From a virus, in IMG/VR virus record IMGVR_UViG_2706796514_000001, positions 65,960 through 129,959 of that record: 64,000 nt of DNA. One strand, written 5' to 3'. A model generated the notes under the pieces. That model was not told the origin of the DNA, did no database searches, and saw nothing but the letters and a program-made list of their open reading frames with translations. Both the position numbers and the translations under genes were made by a program. The first letter of the stretch is position 1. Each line of letters starts with the position of its first letter. Positions 8,843 to 14,574 of this stretch are shown here, in pieces.

Positions 8843-9457
8843 CTAGAACGGTTGATAATCCACGCGATGCAATAGTTGCCCATATACAAAGGTTTCATCT
8901 TTTTCACGTTTTTCCGCTAGTTCTATATAATGAACAGATTGCATCGCATTAAGTCCATTGTACACTACATTCTCTGCTGCAGCATTACCTCTCTTATAAC
9001 AAAGACCTCTGTAAGCATTAATAGTATCACTTCCTAGGTATCCGTCAACCTCTATATCAGAATAATACTCACCTTTATTGTTGAGCACATTCAGGATACG
9101 TTGTATCCACTTGATAGGTGTTCGGCTACCAGTGTTAACGCCTGTATCAAATAACTCTTTCGCTAACAAAGAAGACTCTTCTGCCACCAAGTAGATTTTC
9201 GGTCGGTAGTAGTATTCGTATGCGTAAACATCCTGTGCGAATGCCAACGGCATTGATGTGATGTCACCATTCCAATTATAGTGTACCCACTCGTAGCCAA
9301 AGTTCATAGCCGTTTGGTATGTAATACCATAGTTGGTTTCACCACCAGAATCGTCCTTATTATTAACGTAACCCCCTTCTGCCTTGATAGTTTGGTCAAT
9401 AAAAGTCTGTACGTAATCAGGTGATTCCTTGTAAGCGTTTAGTATTTTACTACTCAT
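8843..9457 (-). CDS. glycoside hydrolase family 108 endolysin with a C-terminal peptidoglycan-binding domain
   Basis: EGGYVNNKDDSGGETNYGIT signature; LFDTGVNTG; IEVDGYLG. Confidence 0.9.
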   Translation of the reverse strand: MSSKILNAYKESPDYVQTFIDQTIKAEGGYVNNKDDSGGETNYGITYQTAMNFGYEWVHYNWNGDITSMPLAFAQDVYAYEYYYRPKIYLVAEESSLLAKELFDTGVNTGSRTPIKWIQRILNVLNNKGEYYSDIEVDGYLGSDTINAYRGLCYKRGNAAAENVVYNGLNAMQSVHYIELAEKREKDETFVYGQLLHRVDYQPF

Positions 9458-9576
9458 ATAATTTAATCCACCCTATATCAACCATATTCTTAATAAAAGT
9501 TTTATTCCTGTACTCTTTAGGTAACACTTTTACCATTAGGTTTACTGTTATCAGGAATATCTTTATCCTAGTTGTG

Positions 9577-9861
9577 TCACTCATCTACTTTAACCTCAAC
9601 ACCTTCCACGATAACTGGTATAATCAAGCCTAAACTCTCTACGTGCTCCTTAGCTGCTTGGTACAAAGATAAAAACTCTGTAGCAAACCCATCCTCATTC
9701 TTAGTAATAAACACACTCTGGGATAATCCACTCTCGGTAACTTTATCATTCCACAAATTACGTAGCTTAACTGCTTCTTCATCTACAACTTCTTGTGTCA
9801 ACTCGGGTTGTTCGTAATCACAATGACCTTCTGTGCCAACGTTTGTATATTCTTCACTCAT
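9577..9861 (-). CDS. hypothetical acidic protein
   Basis: 94-aa ORF with AAGGAG SD. Confidence 0.8.
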   Translation of the reverse strand: MSEEYTNVGTEGHCDYEQPELTQEVVDEEAVKLRNLWNDKVTESGLSQSVFITKNEDGFATEFLSLYQAAKEHVESLGLIIPVIVEGVEVKVDE

Positions 9862-9959: not shown

Positions 9960-10017
9960 ATATAACAAGTGATTCAACGAAGATTCGCTACGCTCACTTG
10001 TTAACCAAGCGTTATAC
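9960..10017 (+). mobile_element. integron attC site 1
   Basis: R'' ATATAAC, 5 nt, L'' ATTCAACG (extra C), spacer, L' TGTTAAC, 5 nt, R' GTTATAC: canonical 7-5-8-n-7-5-7 layout. Confidence 0.85.
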
Positions 10018-10099
10018 GTTTCACACGTTCAGAGTAGTGTGATACTCTTGGTACTCTGTAGTGTTAGCTACAATCCCTAAATTAATAAGGAAATTAAAA
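10011..10099 (+). repeat. cassette leader, direct repeat copy 1 (copy 2 at 11419-11506)
   Basis: about 88 bp identical apart from one A; contains TACAAT and an AAGGA SD before an ATG. Confidence 0.95.
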
Positions 10100-10327
10100 A
10101 TGAACACCCAAGAATATAAGCTGTAGAGACAATACGAACCGAGAATAGATGAAATCAATTCACGTTTAGATATTGTGGATGAGGAAATACCTAAATTACA
10201 AAAGAAGTATCGTACTTCTGGTTACAAAGCTTCTGCCATAGATGAACTTTTATCTTACGAGAAAGAGTCTAGCGAACTTCACCAAGAAAAGTTTCAAATT
10301 TGGAATAAGATAAAAACTGGTCTATAG
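10100..10327 (+). pseudogene. cassette A plus-strand gene with a premature amber codon
   Basis: ATG 10100 after SD; TAG at 10124-10126; the same frame stays open to TAG 10325-10327. Confidence 0.7.
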
Positions 10328-10514
10328 CTTCTGAGACGTTCAATGCAAACTCCTCTGTATCTAACACTTTAGTATCAAGGGCTTTTCCTTGTTTTTGGGC
10401 GGATAATATTAATTTATTTATCTCATAGCGGTTTTCTAAAGTATTTTCCATTTGAGACACAATATCTTTAAACATCTTCAAATCAAAAAGGGCTTTATCT
10501 GTTACATCATTCAT
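10269..10514 (-). CDS. cassette A minus-strand hypothetical protein
   Basis: 81-aa ORF with GAAGGA SD in the repeated trailer. Confidence 0.8.
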   Translation of the reverse strand: MNDVTDKALFDLKMFKDIVSQMENTLENRYEINKLILSAQKQGKALDTKVLDTEEFALNVSEAIDQFLSYSKFETFLGEVR

Positions 10515-10569
10515 ATTATTTTCCTTCTATATTATTTAAAATTAAACTTGCTCACTATTGAACATAAAC

Positions 10570-10626
10570 GGATAACAAGTTGCTAAAACGGACTCACTAC
10601 GTTCGCCGCTTAGCAAGGCGTTATAT
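10570..10626 (+). mobile_element. integron attC site 2
   Basis: GGATAAC-AAGTT-GCTAAAAC...GCTTAGC-AAGGC-GTTATAT; identical to attC4 up to the crossover. Confidence 0.85.
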
Positions 10627-10651
10627 GCTCCTCTAATCCTGAGAATACGTC

Positions 10652-11263
10652 TCATTCAAGAGGTTTTTCACACTTTTTCAGTAAATCCATTAAGTGGGAA
10701 TGATCCTCTAAGTTAGTCCCCTTATCATACTTCTTTTGGTAGAGTTTAAAAGCTTCTGAAGTATTGGATATAAAAGGGAACCGTTTAAGTTCTTTACTCT
10801 CGTCATTGTTAGTCCCAAACTTCCCAAAATTATACATAACCTCCATACAATAGAAGTGGTTTATTGCTAAGTTCTCAACCTTCTTTATAGCTTCGTCTAC
10901 GGGTATTTCAAATATATCTCCCATATCTACGAAAGAGTTCTCAAATTTTAAAAACCTCCGCAAAGCTTCTTTGTCTTTTGTCCCATAAGAAAACAAGGAA
11001 AATTTGACCCATCCCCGTAAGTCATCCCAGCAAAACTGACCTGCATACTCATAACTACAAACGGCAGTGTCACCACAAGGGTTGTATTTATTCCAACATA
11101 AAGTGTTGTATAGGTTTTGTATGCTAGTTAAACTATCCTCTTTCCTTTTAAATTCTTTCCTAAATCGGTACCTACTTAGTAATCCTACGAACACTGCGCC
11201 TCCTATAACAGGTAGTATTATCCAGACTATTTTATTAAACACTTCTTTAATTAAATCTTCCAC
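10652..11263 (-). CDS. cassette B protein with an N-terminal transmembrane helix
   Basis: 203-aa ORF (GTG start) lying between attC2 and attC3, antisense to the attC orientation. Confidence 0.8.
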   Translation of the reverse strand: MEDLIKEVFNKIVWIILPVIGGAVFVGLLSRYRFRKEFKRKEDSLTSIQNLYNTLCWNKYNPCGDTAVCSYEYAGQFCWDDLRGWVKFSLFSYGTKDKEALRRFLKFENSFVDMGDIFEIPVDEAIKKVENLAINHFYCMEVMYNFGKFGTNNDESKELKRFPFISNTSEAFKLYQKKYDKGTNLEDHSHLMDLLKKCEKPLE

Positions 11264-11348
11264 TTAACAATTCCATTTTAGAAAATTGCATAATACCCTG
11301 TAATAACTGCTAAATAAAATTAAGTCTTGGTAGCTTTATTTAAAAAGC

Positions 11349-11425
11349 ATATAACAAGACAATTAAGAAGGACACGTAACAGCTCGCTACGCTCCTTCAC
11401 CGTGCCTCTTATTGAGGTGTTATAC
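11349..11425 (+). mobile_element. integron attC site 3
   Basis: ATATAAC-AAGAC-AATTAAGA...TCTTATT-GAGGT-GTTATAC; inner CACG/CGTG stem; R'' is the exact complement of the cassette B start GTTATAT. Confidence 0.85.
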
Positions 11426-11506
11426 GTTTCACACGTTCAGAGTAGTGTGATACTCTTGGTACTCTGTAGTGTTAGCTACAATCCCTAAATTAATAAGGAA
11501 ATTAAA
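11419..11506 (+). repeat. cassette leader, direct repeat copy 2
   Basis: matches 10011-10099. Confidence 0.95.
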
Positions 11507-11755
11507 ATGATTAGTTACAATGAAGAAACGGTATTCAACATAACTTTTGAAACTAAGAGATCAAGCACTTGGGTTGATATGTTTGAAACGGAAATGTATT
11601 TCAATTATCTCCCTAGAACCAATGATATTATAAACATCGACTCTTGTTACATGAGAGTTTTATCTGTTGAATACGATTATAAGTTTCAGTTCAACCCTAC
11701 TGTTCGTGTTGAAGAGCTTGGGCACTTTGAAGAATACTCTCGTAATCATCTTTAG
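11507..11755 (+). CDS. cassette C plus-strand hypothetical protein
   Basis: 82-aa ORF with AAGGA SD in the repeated leader. Confidence 0.8.
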   Translation: MISYNEETVFNITFETKRSSTWVDMFETEMYFNYLPRTNDIINIDSCYMRVLSVEYDYKFQFNPTVRVEELGHFEEYSRNHL

Positions 11756-11915
11756 GTCGTTTCTGACCGCACCATGAAAGGATTTGGTTACTGAAACGGT
11801 TTAGTGGATCTTGTGGGTTCGTTAAGAGTACGGCTTTAATATTAAGAGTTTTTAGCTGTTCTTCAAAACTACCCTTAATTTCCACCAACTTATTCTCTTG
11901 TGTAATCACGTACAT
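11697..11915 (-). CDS. cassette C minus-strand hypothetical protein
   Basis: 72-aa ORF with GAAGGA SD in the repeated trailer. Confidence 0.8.
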   Translation of the reverse strand: MYVITQENKLVEIKGSFEEQLKTLNIKAVLLTNPQDPLNRFSNQILSWCGQKRPKDDYESILQSAQALQHEQ

Positions 11916-11971
11916 ATTAATTTTCCTTCTATATTATTTAAAATTAAACTTGCTCATTATTGAGCATAAAC

Positions 11972-12028
11972 GGATAACAAGTTGCTAAAACGGACTCACT
12001 ACGTTCGCCGCTTAGCAAGGCGTTATCT
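11972..12028 (+). mobile_element. integron attC site 4
   Basis: same sequence as attC2, with R' GTTATCT; the preceding ~50 bp (11920-11971) repeats 10518-10569 with two substitutions. Confidence 0.85.
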
Positions 12029-12030
12029 AA

Positions 12031-12059
12031 ATACTAACAAACCTCAATCTCGATGTCAA
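12031..12059 (-). promoter_or_regulatory. sigma70-type phage promoter firing into the cassette array
   Basis: TTGACA-17-TAGTAT; predicted start near 12024, at the attC4 crossover. Confidence 0.7.
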
Positions 12060-13320: not shown

Positions 13321-14574
13321 CTACGTGGTGTAGTATGCCACCGTCTCTTTATAACCACCTATATGAGTATTACCTTCGAACACCTGAGGTATAGTCTTAT
13401 AACCAAAGTTATCTAAACTGTCTACATCTACCACCCTATAAGTTATTAGGTTTTCATCTAAGAAATCTTTTAAGGAGTTACAATAACCACACCATCCTGT
13501 ACTATATACTGTCAAGACATCTTTAGGTAGCACTGTTGCTGTTTCCACAGAACTAATATCTAGTTGTAGACTATAAGACCCATAATCAACAGAACCTTTT
13601 AAAGTATCGTGACTATAGTCTGCTACACGCTCTTCAAAGAAGTTAGTGTGCTTCTTACCAGATAAAACCCAGTCCATCCAAGTAAGAGGGTTACTCACAT
13701 CTTCATAAACAGGTTTCCAACCTAGTTGTTTCATTCTAAGATTTGCAAGATACTTAATGTAAGTCTTCATATCTGCTTTAGTCATATCCTCTTGATCACC
13801 GATCTCGTATACTAGGTCTAGGAACAAGTGCTCCGCTTCAACATAGGACTTTATAATCTTCTTAACGTAGTTCATAATTTCACGTTTATCCTCTTTATTA
13901 AAGTTCTCTAACTCTTTCAAAAAGATTTTCATGTTGTTATCTACATGCTCTTCTTCGTCTCGAAGTGACCACTCATTTACCTTGTTAGTACCTTGCATCA
14001 GACCAAACCTACGAAGGTTCAACATAGAAGCAAATGCCCCGAACAGGCAAATACCCTCAGCTAAAAACAAACGAGCTAGTGTCTTCATGAAACCTACTTT
14101 AGTAGAGGGGTCTGTATCTTCCCCTCCATACATAACATCTAGCTTATCCTGCATTTCTTTGAACTTCATAAATTCCGTCCAAGAAGATTCTGGAAAAGAA
14201 AGAGCCTCTACCGCTGCTGCATAACATCTCTGGTGGGTAGATTCTCTTGCTGCCGCAACCATAAACCAGTTCCTGACTTCATTATTACCTACGTAAGGTA
14301 GTAATTGGCAGTACAACTCTCCTGCTGCGATATCCATCTGGGTAAACAAGTTTAAAACCTTAGTTAAGATTTGTTTGTTAGTCTCATGAGGTACGTTTAA
14401 TGTCTTCATACCGTCTTTAGAATAATATTGTTTAACATCATCACTGAAGTCTAATTGATGAACTTCCCAGTATAAATCTACTACATGACGCTCTACTGAC
14501 TCCATAAGATATGGATACTTAAACGGACGGTAACTCTCACTTTTATCAAAAATACTACTCATATTATCCCTCAC
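13321..14574 (-). CDS. nrdB: class Ia ribonucleotide reductase beta subunit fused to a C-terminal glutaredoxin
   Basis: di-iron ligands (ESTHQRCY, AEGICLFGAF, RDEEEH), NFFEERV tail, then WCGYC and TIPQVF glutaredoxin motifs. Confidence 0.92.
   Translation of the reverse strand: MRDNMSSIFDKSESYRPFKYPYLMESVERHVVDLYWEVHQLDFSDDVKQYYSKDGMKTLNVPHETNKQILTKVLNLFTQMDIAAGELYCQLLPYVGNNEVRNWFMVAAARESTHQRCYAAAVEALSFPESSWTEFMKFKEMQDKLDVMYGGEDTDPSTKVGFMKTLARLFLAEGICLFGAFASMLNLRRFGLMQGTNKVNEWSLRDEEEHVDNNMKIFLKELENFNKEDKREIMNYVKKIIKSYVEAEHLFLDLVYEIGDQEDMTKADMKTYIKYLANLRMKQLGWKPVYEDVSNPLTWMDWVLSGKKHTNFFEERVADYSHDTLKGSVDYGSYSLQLDISSVETATVLPKDVLTVYSTGWCGYCNSLKDFLDENLITYRVVDVDSLDNFGYKTIPQVFEGNTHIGGYKETVAYYTT

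Follow-up and report, generated by a model that had tools for sequence, protein, structure and literature searches.

The 64,000-nucleotide stretch analysed here (the window, bases 65960-129959 of a virus record that is 131,903 bp long and has direct terminal repeats) carries an array of integron gene cassettes. Two of them, cassette A (10012-10620, 609 bp, + strand) and cassette C (11420-12022, 603 bp, + strand), enclose unrelated pairs of convergent, overlapping genes between nearly identical ends. An earlier reading of the sequence alone (the sequence-only reading) had seen in this arrangement a hypervariable cassette family with a fixed overlap geometry. Comparison with related phages, bacterial genomes and environmental contigs leads us to a different view, to which we assign a probability of about 0.7: A and C are separate cassettes with unrelated but real convergent gene pairs, their ends are a mosaic that includes gene conversion, cassettes are shuffled at the G|TT crossover of the attC sites, and the equal 59-bp overlaps are coincidental. 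New here are the mosaic of shared ends with gene conversion, cassettes that code on two strands, and differences by whole cassettes among environmental relatives.

The region forms the middle of a cluster of four attC sites, all in one orientation and without an integrase, in a virulent marine phage. A covariance model (R1), built solely from 51 bacterial attC sites of marine Gammaproteobacteria, gave exactly four matches over the whole 131.9-kb phage genome, all on the + strand and scoring 48-61 bits. The first site, attC1 (9962-10015, 47.9 bits), ends the leftmost cassette, called 0, and its G|TT crossover (between 10011 and 10012), together with that of attC2 (10572-10624, 54.7 bits; crossover between 10620 and 10621), bounds cassette A. 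Cassette B (10621-11419, 799 bp, + strand) ends in attC3 (11351-11423, 61.4 bits). Cassette C ends in attC4 (11974-12026, 53.6 bits; crossover between 12022 and 12023), which is identical to attC2. The sites contain the imperfect inverted repeats of attC, R''(RYYYAAC)-L''...L'-R'(GTTRRRY), here as ATAAC...GTTAT, with the L boxes paired in the predicted hairpin folds. In attC2, the L'' side is one base longer than the L' side (12 against 11 nt), as read from the sequence. This additional base and the limits of the repeats give the cassettes an orientation on the + strand, and the 51 bacterial sites have the same orientation by their L''/L' asymmetry. The sequence-only reading had recognised integron cassettes with attC sites, and the attC sites are indeed genuine, as judged by the R1 scores and by their match to cloned sites described below. 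A tyrosine recombinase or integron integrase was sought in the whole phage genome, and neither PF00589 nor TIGR02249 gave a match. The array is therefore a cluster of attC sites that has no integron integrase (CALIN) and not a complete integron.

The cassette array itself is already published. In the part available to us of the paper by Qi, Rajabal, Ghaly, Tetu and Gillings (Qi et al. 2023, Front Microbiol 14:1091391; PMC9892861), a CALIN is described in PH101, a virulent 132-kb phage of Pseudoalteromonas marina. That CALIN and the present one are one and the same, in a virulent phage of about 132 kb and with the cassettes on the + strand of the window. The primer sequences PH101_attC1 and PH101_attC2 are identical to attC1 and attC2, and the cloned sites match window positions 9960-10017 and 10570-10626. 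According to the same part of that paper, IntI1 recombines both sites with attI1, and recombination by IntI1 was obtained at five of six phage attC sites, the failing one being from a Polaribacter phage. The bottom strand named there is the complement of the window's + strand, which agrees with the orientation given above. That part of the paper says nothing of the ends common to A and C, of the gene pairs that converge and overlap, of the nonsense codon in the + gene of A, or of the environmental variants of the array.

To place these sites among bacterial ones, a pattern drawn from the four attC sites of the window was searched in bacterial genomes and returned 113 loci, of which 99 are listed. 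Among the matches listed, most are from marine Gammaproteobacteria (Pseudoalteromonas, Paraglaciecola, Shewanella, Microbulbifer, Amphritea), and the stems of the bacterial sites covary as is typical for attC. The excess of 113 loci over the roughly 46 expected by chance (a rough estimate), along with the taxonomic bias, suggests a real and widespread attC subtype. A loop motif, CGCTACGCTC, recurs in the retrieved sites across many marine gammaproteobacterial genera, partly by construction of the pattern. Near-identical short attC sites of this type (53-54 nt) were also found in the IMG/VR contigs L006, L008, L010, L013, L014, L015 and L018, several of which have multiple co-oriented matches. 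These contigs are either further phage-borne arrays or pieces of chromosomal integrons binned as viral.

We then compared A and C along their length. Direct repeats of at least 40 nt fall into only two families in the 64-kb window: a left repeat (10011-10099 = 11419-11507; 89 nt, 100% identical) and a right repeat that includes attC (10518-10624 = 11920-12026; 107 nt, 98% identical). When 10012-10620 was aligned with 11420-12022, identity ran from the G|TT of the preceding attC to the start codon of the + gene, resumed at the start codon of the - gene and continued through the last base. The leader of A (10012-10099, + strand) is 100% identical to that of C. The trailer of A (10515-10571), which comprises the 5' untranslated region and Shine-Dalgarno sequence of the - gene and a small hairpin, is shared with that of C (11916-11973, + strand, followed by attC4 at 11974-12026) except for two substitutions and one indel. 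The repeats pointed out from the sequence, an 88-bp leader, a trailer with two substitutions and an identical attC, are thus real (88 nt at 100%; 107 nt at 98%). The interiors of about 410 bp show random-level similarity in the DNA alignment, and the proteins of the two - genes are unrelated in protein comparison, in line with the remark that no clear homology links the products of A and C. The window contains no more than two copies each of the leader and trailer motifs (with up to three mismatches), and the phage genome likewise only two. The leader 29-mer had no match in IMG/VR, and a megablast of the region against GenBank phages, a set apparently without near-identical records, returned nothing. 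A metagenome scan with a leader 25-mer recovered only three TARA contigs, all carrying A or C, and no third payload in the shared frame, so that only two payloads are found in it.

The four genes inside these frames are real and under purifying selection. Cassette A contains A+ (10100-10327, + strand, 75 codons) and the convergent A- (10269-10514, - strand, 81 aa); cassette C contains C+ (11507-11755, + strand, 82 aa) and the convergent C- (11697-11915, - strand, 72 aa). The 3' ends overlap by 59 bp in each pair. A+ and A- are conserved across genomes at 69-73% amino acid identity; P0021, the A- homologue in the A-type relative L149, is 73% identical and faces the same partner with an equal overlap. 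For C+, 13 homologues at 68-80% identity come from Vibrio cholerae, V. parahaemolyticus, V. chagasii, Shewanella baltica and metagenomes; for C-, there are six at 76-88%. The ratio of nonsynonymous to synonymous polymorphism (pN/pS), calculated on the non-overlapping parts, was 0.33 for A+ and 0.26 for A- (phage versus L149), 0.22 for C+ (seven sequences) and 0.12 for C- (six sequences). For each of the four genes, the annotated frame had the lowest pN/pS of the six frames. These values bear out the convergent ORF pairs as coding and contradict the strong diversifying selection proposed for a hypervariable family: each payload is conserved, and the two payloads are simply unrelated.

A+ was assumed to be open from 10100 to 10327, which is not the case in the window genome, where its codon 9 is an in-frame TAG (10124-10126). 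Under genetic code table 11, only a 50-aa ORF with a GTG start (10175-10327) is left in this region. Codon 9 is TAT (Tyr) in L149 and in the relatives L153 and L170, position 10126 reads T rather than G in four of four sequencing runs covering the region, and the relatives have an intact 75-aa gene. A+ is therefore a recent pseudogene in the window genome only, and A- is intact beside it. Recoding of TAG was considered and rejected, because the relatives have TAT and the long ORFs of the window are open under table 11.

Little can be said of the function of these proteins from similarity. Family searches of the cassette proteins in Pfam, PHROGs, PADLOC and NCBIfam gave no match, and look-ups in protein atlases gave nothing usable. 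The model of C+ (predicted local distance difference test, pLDDT, 82) is a six-stranded small beta-barrel with a C-terminal helix. Its fold matches are weak and lead to uncharacterised proteins, except for one weak neighbour annotated as 'Immunity protein 35' (template modelling score, TM, 0.57; E 0.025). The C- model (pLDDT 68) had no fold match. Our reading is that the four proteins are encoded by accessory genes, and that their integron cassettes travel between marine bacteria and the phages of these bacteria.

The array differs among relatives by whole cassettes. L153 (135.7 kb, 98.65% identical) lacks exactly 11420-12022, that is, cassette C, with the junction ...GGCG|TTATCTAAAT. The order is 0-A-B-C in PH101, 0-A-B in L153, 0'-A-B-X-C in L170 and L171, 0-C in L178, 0-C-Z in L174 and L175, and C-X-Y... 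in L173 and L176. C-B junctions occur in L177 and L181, and a B-A junction occurs in a contig of metatranscriptome run X17, in which A follows attC3 instead of attC1. Cassette C thus stands at other array positions in L170, L174, L175, L177, L178 and L181. Every junction examined is a G|TTAT crossover. In metagenome contigs, loose ends fall at 10619-10626 and 11355-11423, which are attC sites, and alternative neighbours begin at 10620/10621 and 11419-11423. Gain and loss of cassettes at exactly the G|TT of R' is thus seen both in the L153 junction and in the array variants. By these junctions, the array is mobile in nature. Since the phage has no integrase of its own, a host integron integrase is the likely agent, and cassettes would be inserted, lost and reordered at G|TT, presumably by that enzyme.

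The relatives also indicate how A and C may have come to share their ends. The A-type cassette of L149 aligns with the window from 22 nt before the A+ ATG through the whole trailer into attC; therefore, trailer and attC are native to A-type cassettes. In the C-type loci of L144, L147, L148, L152 and L146, the alignment is confined to the part between the C+ ATG and about 30-35 nt past the C- ATG. Their leaders and attC sites are different ones, and C pairs have their own attC in L152 (48 bits), L147 and L148. Here, the C payload therefore sits in an A-like frame. This fits the suggestion, made from the sequence as one option, of a template into which content is swapped, in so far as the ends are native to A and C has other ends in L144, L147 and L152.

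The leader has a different history. All copies of C have the long leader seen in the window. In L153, L170, L180, L182 and runs X1, X5 and X9, the 3' half of the A leader differs by about seven substitutions and an 8-bp deletion, and the flanking DNA is 98-99% identical; the variant letters and the 8-nt gap lie at about 10058-10092 in X1, X5 and X9, and X17 covers the leader from 10070. None of the relatives examined that carry A has an A leader equal to the C leader, as the window genome has, and the array of L170 combines an A that keeps its own leader with a C that has the long one. The simplest account is therefore a gene conversion from C to A, by which the 3' half of the A leader was likely overwritten by that of C in the window lineage. 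The TACAAT box, proposed as a conserved expression signal, lies within this differing part. Relatives with an intact A+ have the 8-bp deletion in this part of their cassette A, so the box does not qualify as conserved. In L174 and L175, the trailer of C is an A/C hybrid at two diagnostic sites, which shows exchange at the other end too. An older shared block consists of the trailer (58 nt), attC (53 nt) and the first 47 nt past the crossover, segments that are contiguous in a circular cassette. The AT-rich ribosome-binding stretches would be the last similarity before the payload, which may be why homology stops at the start codons; exchange would end at these Shine-Dalgarno patches beside both start codons. 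Such contexts of about 20-26 nt also precede ordinary Alteromonadaceae genes with no attC nearby. They are generic, and we rejected them as proof of common cassette descent. The shared ends would accordingly be a recombinational mosaic and not the conserved scaffold of a diversifying family.

The two overlaps (10269-10327 and 11697-11755) are each 59 bp and in the same phase, so the arithmetic of the sequence-only reading is right. The geometry is not fixed. The C+/C- overlap is 59 bp in the phage, L152 and L146 and 65 bp in L144, L145, L147 and L148, where a CTA to CTG change adds two codons; the A+/A- overlap is 59 bp in the phage and L149. Other convergent pairs in related phage arrays overlap by 14 bp (pair X, 54/48 aa), 20 bp (pair Z, 56/48 aa) and 91 bp (a 72/99-aa pair), and a distant A+ relative in L155 overlaps an unrelated 64-aa partner by 18 bp. 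The overlap thus takes two lengths within the C family and ranges from 14 to 91 bp in neighbouring cassette types. With six pair types, which make 15 comparisons, one exact match in length would be unremarkable by rough estimate. That both come to 59 bp most likely reflects chance in the position of the first antisense stop. We also considered, and rejected, an RNA element or bidirectional terminator common to the overlaps, as the overlap sequences fold no better than shuffled ones (z -0.4 to +1.3).

Several other explanations were weighed against this evidence. A hypervariable toxin-antitoxin or effector-immunity family under diversifying selection, held together by a conserved expression frame, could draw on the classical role of two-gene integron cassettes as toxin-antitoxin modules, on the co-occurrence of partners in the phage arrays and in L144, L145, L147, L148, L152 and L149, and on the weak 'Immunity protein 35' neighbour of C+. 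Several findings speak against it. The payloads of A and C are unrelated in sequence and predicted secondary structure, each is under purifying selection, and only two of them share the frame. Vibrio and Shewanella chromosomes have C+ but no C- beside it, and no attC lies within 3 kb of it; L150 and L151, two phage-like contigs, have C- but no C+. The partner of the distant A+ relative is an unrelated 64-aa protein, and the present phage is viable with A+ knocked out. For a type II toxin-antitoxin system, similarity to known families was absent from the Pfam, PHROG, PADLOC and NCBIfam searches, the fold searches were uninformative, and the partners are not consistently co-inherited (C+ alone, C- alone, A+ disrupted with A- intact). 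We consider this family very improbable, and likewise the toxin-antitoxin or effector-immunity pair suggested from the sequence. Slightly less improbable, and still doubtful, is a common origin in cassette genesis, in which a single attC module of trailer, attC and 47 nt was joined de novo to each of two gene pairs and the shared frame is the footprint of the cassette-forming mechanism. The ancestral block is centred on attC and contiguous in the circular form, chromosomal integron arrays typically combine near-identical attC sites with unrelated genes, and a reverse-transcriptase ORF adjoins the attC of the C-type cassette in L152. Yet C pairs elsewhere carry their own, different attC (L152, 48 bits; L147; L148), which means that C already was a cassette when it took on this frame. 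The shared ends can be explained by gene conversion and hybrid trailers, with no new genesis, and no group II intron RNA was detected in L152.

A third possibility concerns coupling by convergent transcription, in which + and - mRNAs pair over the 3' overlap and one gene silences the other, with the + cargo expressed from the integron cassette promoter (Pc) in a bacterial integron and the - cargo from a phage promoter in the phage. In its favour, at least six pairs without relation to one another have the layout + ORF, - ORF and attC; no segment is better conserved than the overlap; a promoter-like site on the phage side is directed along the - strand; and relatives of C+ are found in bacterial chromosomes, those of C- in phage-like contigs. 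Set against this are the variable overlap length (14-91 bp, and 59-65 bp within one family), the lack of stable RNA structure, and the direction of C+ in L146, where it is co-directional with the phage genes. Conservation of the overlap is expected from dual coding alone, and the C+ C-terminus is conserved even in Shewanella, where C- is absent. Such coupling is unlikely in our estimate. A regulatory role for convergent overlap in general, as distinct from the number 59, seems to us equally unlikely.

Some observations weigh against the mosaic reading with coincidental overlaps. Two unrelated pairs both overlap by 59 bp, this length looks ancestral in both families, and the A pair keeps it at 72% DNA identity. 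The overlap is also the best conserved part (56 of 59 positions in the A pair versus about 66% elsewhere), so some constraint beyond dual coding is possible. The origin given for the older trailer, attC and 47-nt block is a tentative one, and a host integrase acting on the phage genome is suggested by the positions of the junctions alone. Finally, contigs from RNA libraries cover the cassettes and show neither strand nor expression. With these points counted, the mosaic of separate cassettes still accounts best for the data.

As for which genes are read, the - strand holds nearly all ORFs of at least 90 aa between position 1 and about 43,000 of the window, and each of the three cassettes has a - strand ORF with a good ribosome-binding site. 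A candidate sigma-70-like phage promoter (TTGACA, 17 nt, TAGTAT, with TG) matches the consensus at 12031-12059 on the - strand and points into the array, so that the site from 12059 to 12031 may drive the - strand of the array. Given this promoter and the ribosome-binding sites, the - strand genes are probably those expressed by the phage. Each of A and C would thus have one gene in the integron sense (+) and one on the phage-transcribed strand (-). A more far-reaching idea is that these are 'two-faced' cassettes with carrier-dependent cargo, in which the 3' overlap makes the two programmes mutually exclusive and the host integrase reshuffles the array within the phage population. We hold this to be possible and rather unlikely. 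If true, a cassette shuttling between host integron and phage would express its + gene in the one and its - gene in the other.

The array resembles several known systems in part. Like sedentary chromosomal integrons, such as those with Vibrio cholerae repeats (VCR), it combines identical attC sites with differing payloads, has G|TTRRRY boundaries and is shuffled. In contrast to Vibrio VCR arrays, only two of the four cassettes here share an attC, the sharing extends 58 nt upstream of it and 47-88 nt past the crossover, and the carrier is a lytic phage without integrase that reads the array backwards. T4-type phages reportedly have mobile regulatory cassettes, called promoter early stem-loop (PeSL) elements and described by Arbiol, Comeau, Krisch and colleagues in 2010. 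In both cases, non-coding expression signals are repeated around small ORFs that vary, and modules are shuffled by homologous recombination. Unlike PeSL, the repeats here are linked to attC, occur twice only and are not used elsewhere in the phage; phage-wide regulatory repeats of this kind were rejected as an explanation, since leader and trailer each occur only twice. Toxin-antitoxin cassettes of integrons likewise have two small genes per cassette, often with their own expression signals and in inverted orientation, whereas the genes here are convergent and overlapping and form no operon, the partners are also found alone, and no family matches them.

These findings mean that, in a lytic phage lineage, close relatives have attC arrays with different sets of whole cassettes and with breakpoints at the integron crossover, which is evidence from natural populations for integron-type recombination on virulent phage genomes, beyond the plasmid assay in the available part of Qi et al. 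2023 (PMC9892861). Convergent, overlapping cassettes that code on two strands and are under purifying selection recur in phage arrays and bacterial contigs. Gene conversion that homogenises the ends of unrelated cassettes can produce the same frame around different cargo without special diversification machinery, and the tempting idea of a hypervariable toxin-antitoxin family with a fixed 59-bp geometry is removed.

The remaining observations concern other cassettes and neighbouring genes. Cassette B has a sole ORF (10652-11263, - strand), which again runs against the attC orientation; its 203-aa product is hydrophobic in a stretch at the N-terminus. The GenBank phage set contains no homologue of this protein, and Pfam, PHROG, PADLOC and NCBIfam gave no match. 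The distant A+ relative (69 aa, 47% identity) lies in L155 (448-926) and L154 (808-1286), in the layout + ORF, - ORF, attC, with the unrelated 64-aa protein as its - partner and the 18-bp overlap; in L154, a tyrosine recombinase follows about 1.3 kb past the attC. In L152, the ORF adjoining the attC (1631-1694) of the C-type cassette encodes a 508-aa reverse transcriptase (RVT_1; 34-1560, - strand), an arrangement that recalls attC-targeting group IIC introns; Rfam found no group II intron RNA in this 2.2-kb contig.

To the left of attC1, the stretch 9452-9853, from the endolysin start at 9457 to attC1, holds a 94-aa ORF on the - strand (9577-9861). In relative L170 and run X1, this ORF stretch is replaced by an unrelated 164-179 nt with a 58-aa ORF, and the leftmost cassette 0 is therefore variable too. 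The left breakpoint of the replacement is at about 9451, with no attC there. The left boundary of cassette 0 may be the original insertion site of the array. To the right of the array, an ORF at 13321-14574 (- strand) encodes the small subunit of a ribonucleotide reductase with a glutaredoxin domain fused to its C-terminus, and this Ribonuc_red_sm and Glutaredoxin fusion is kept in relatives L153 and L170.

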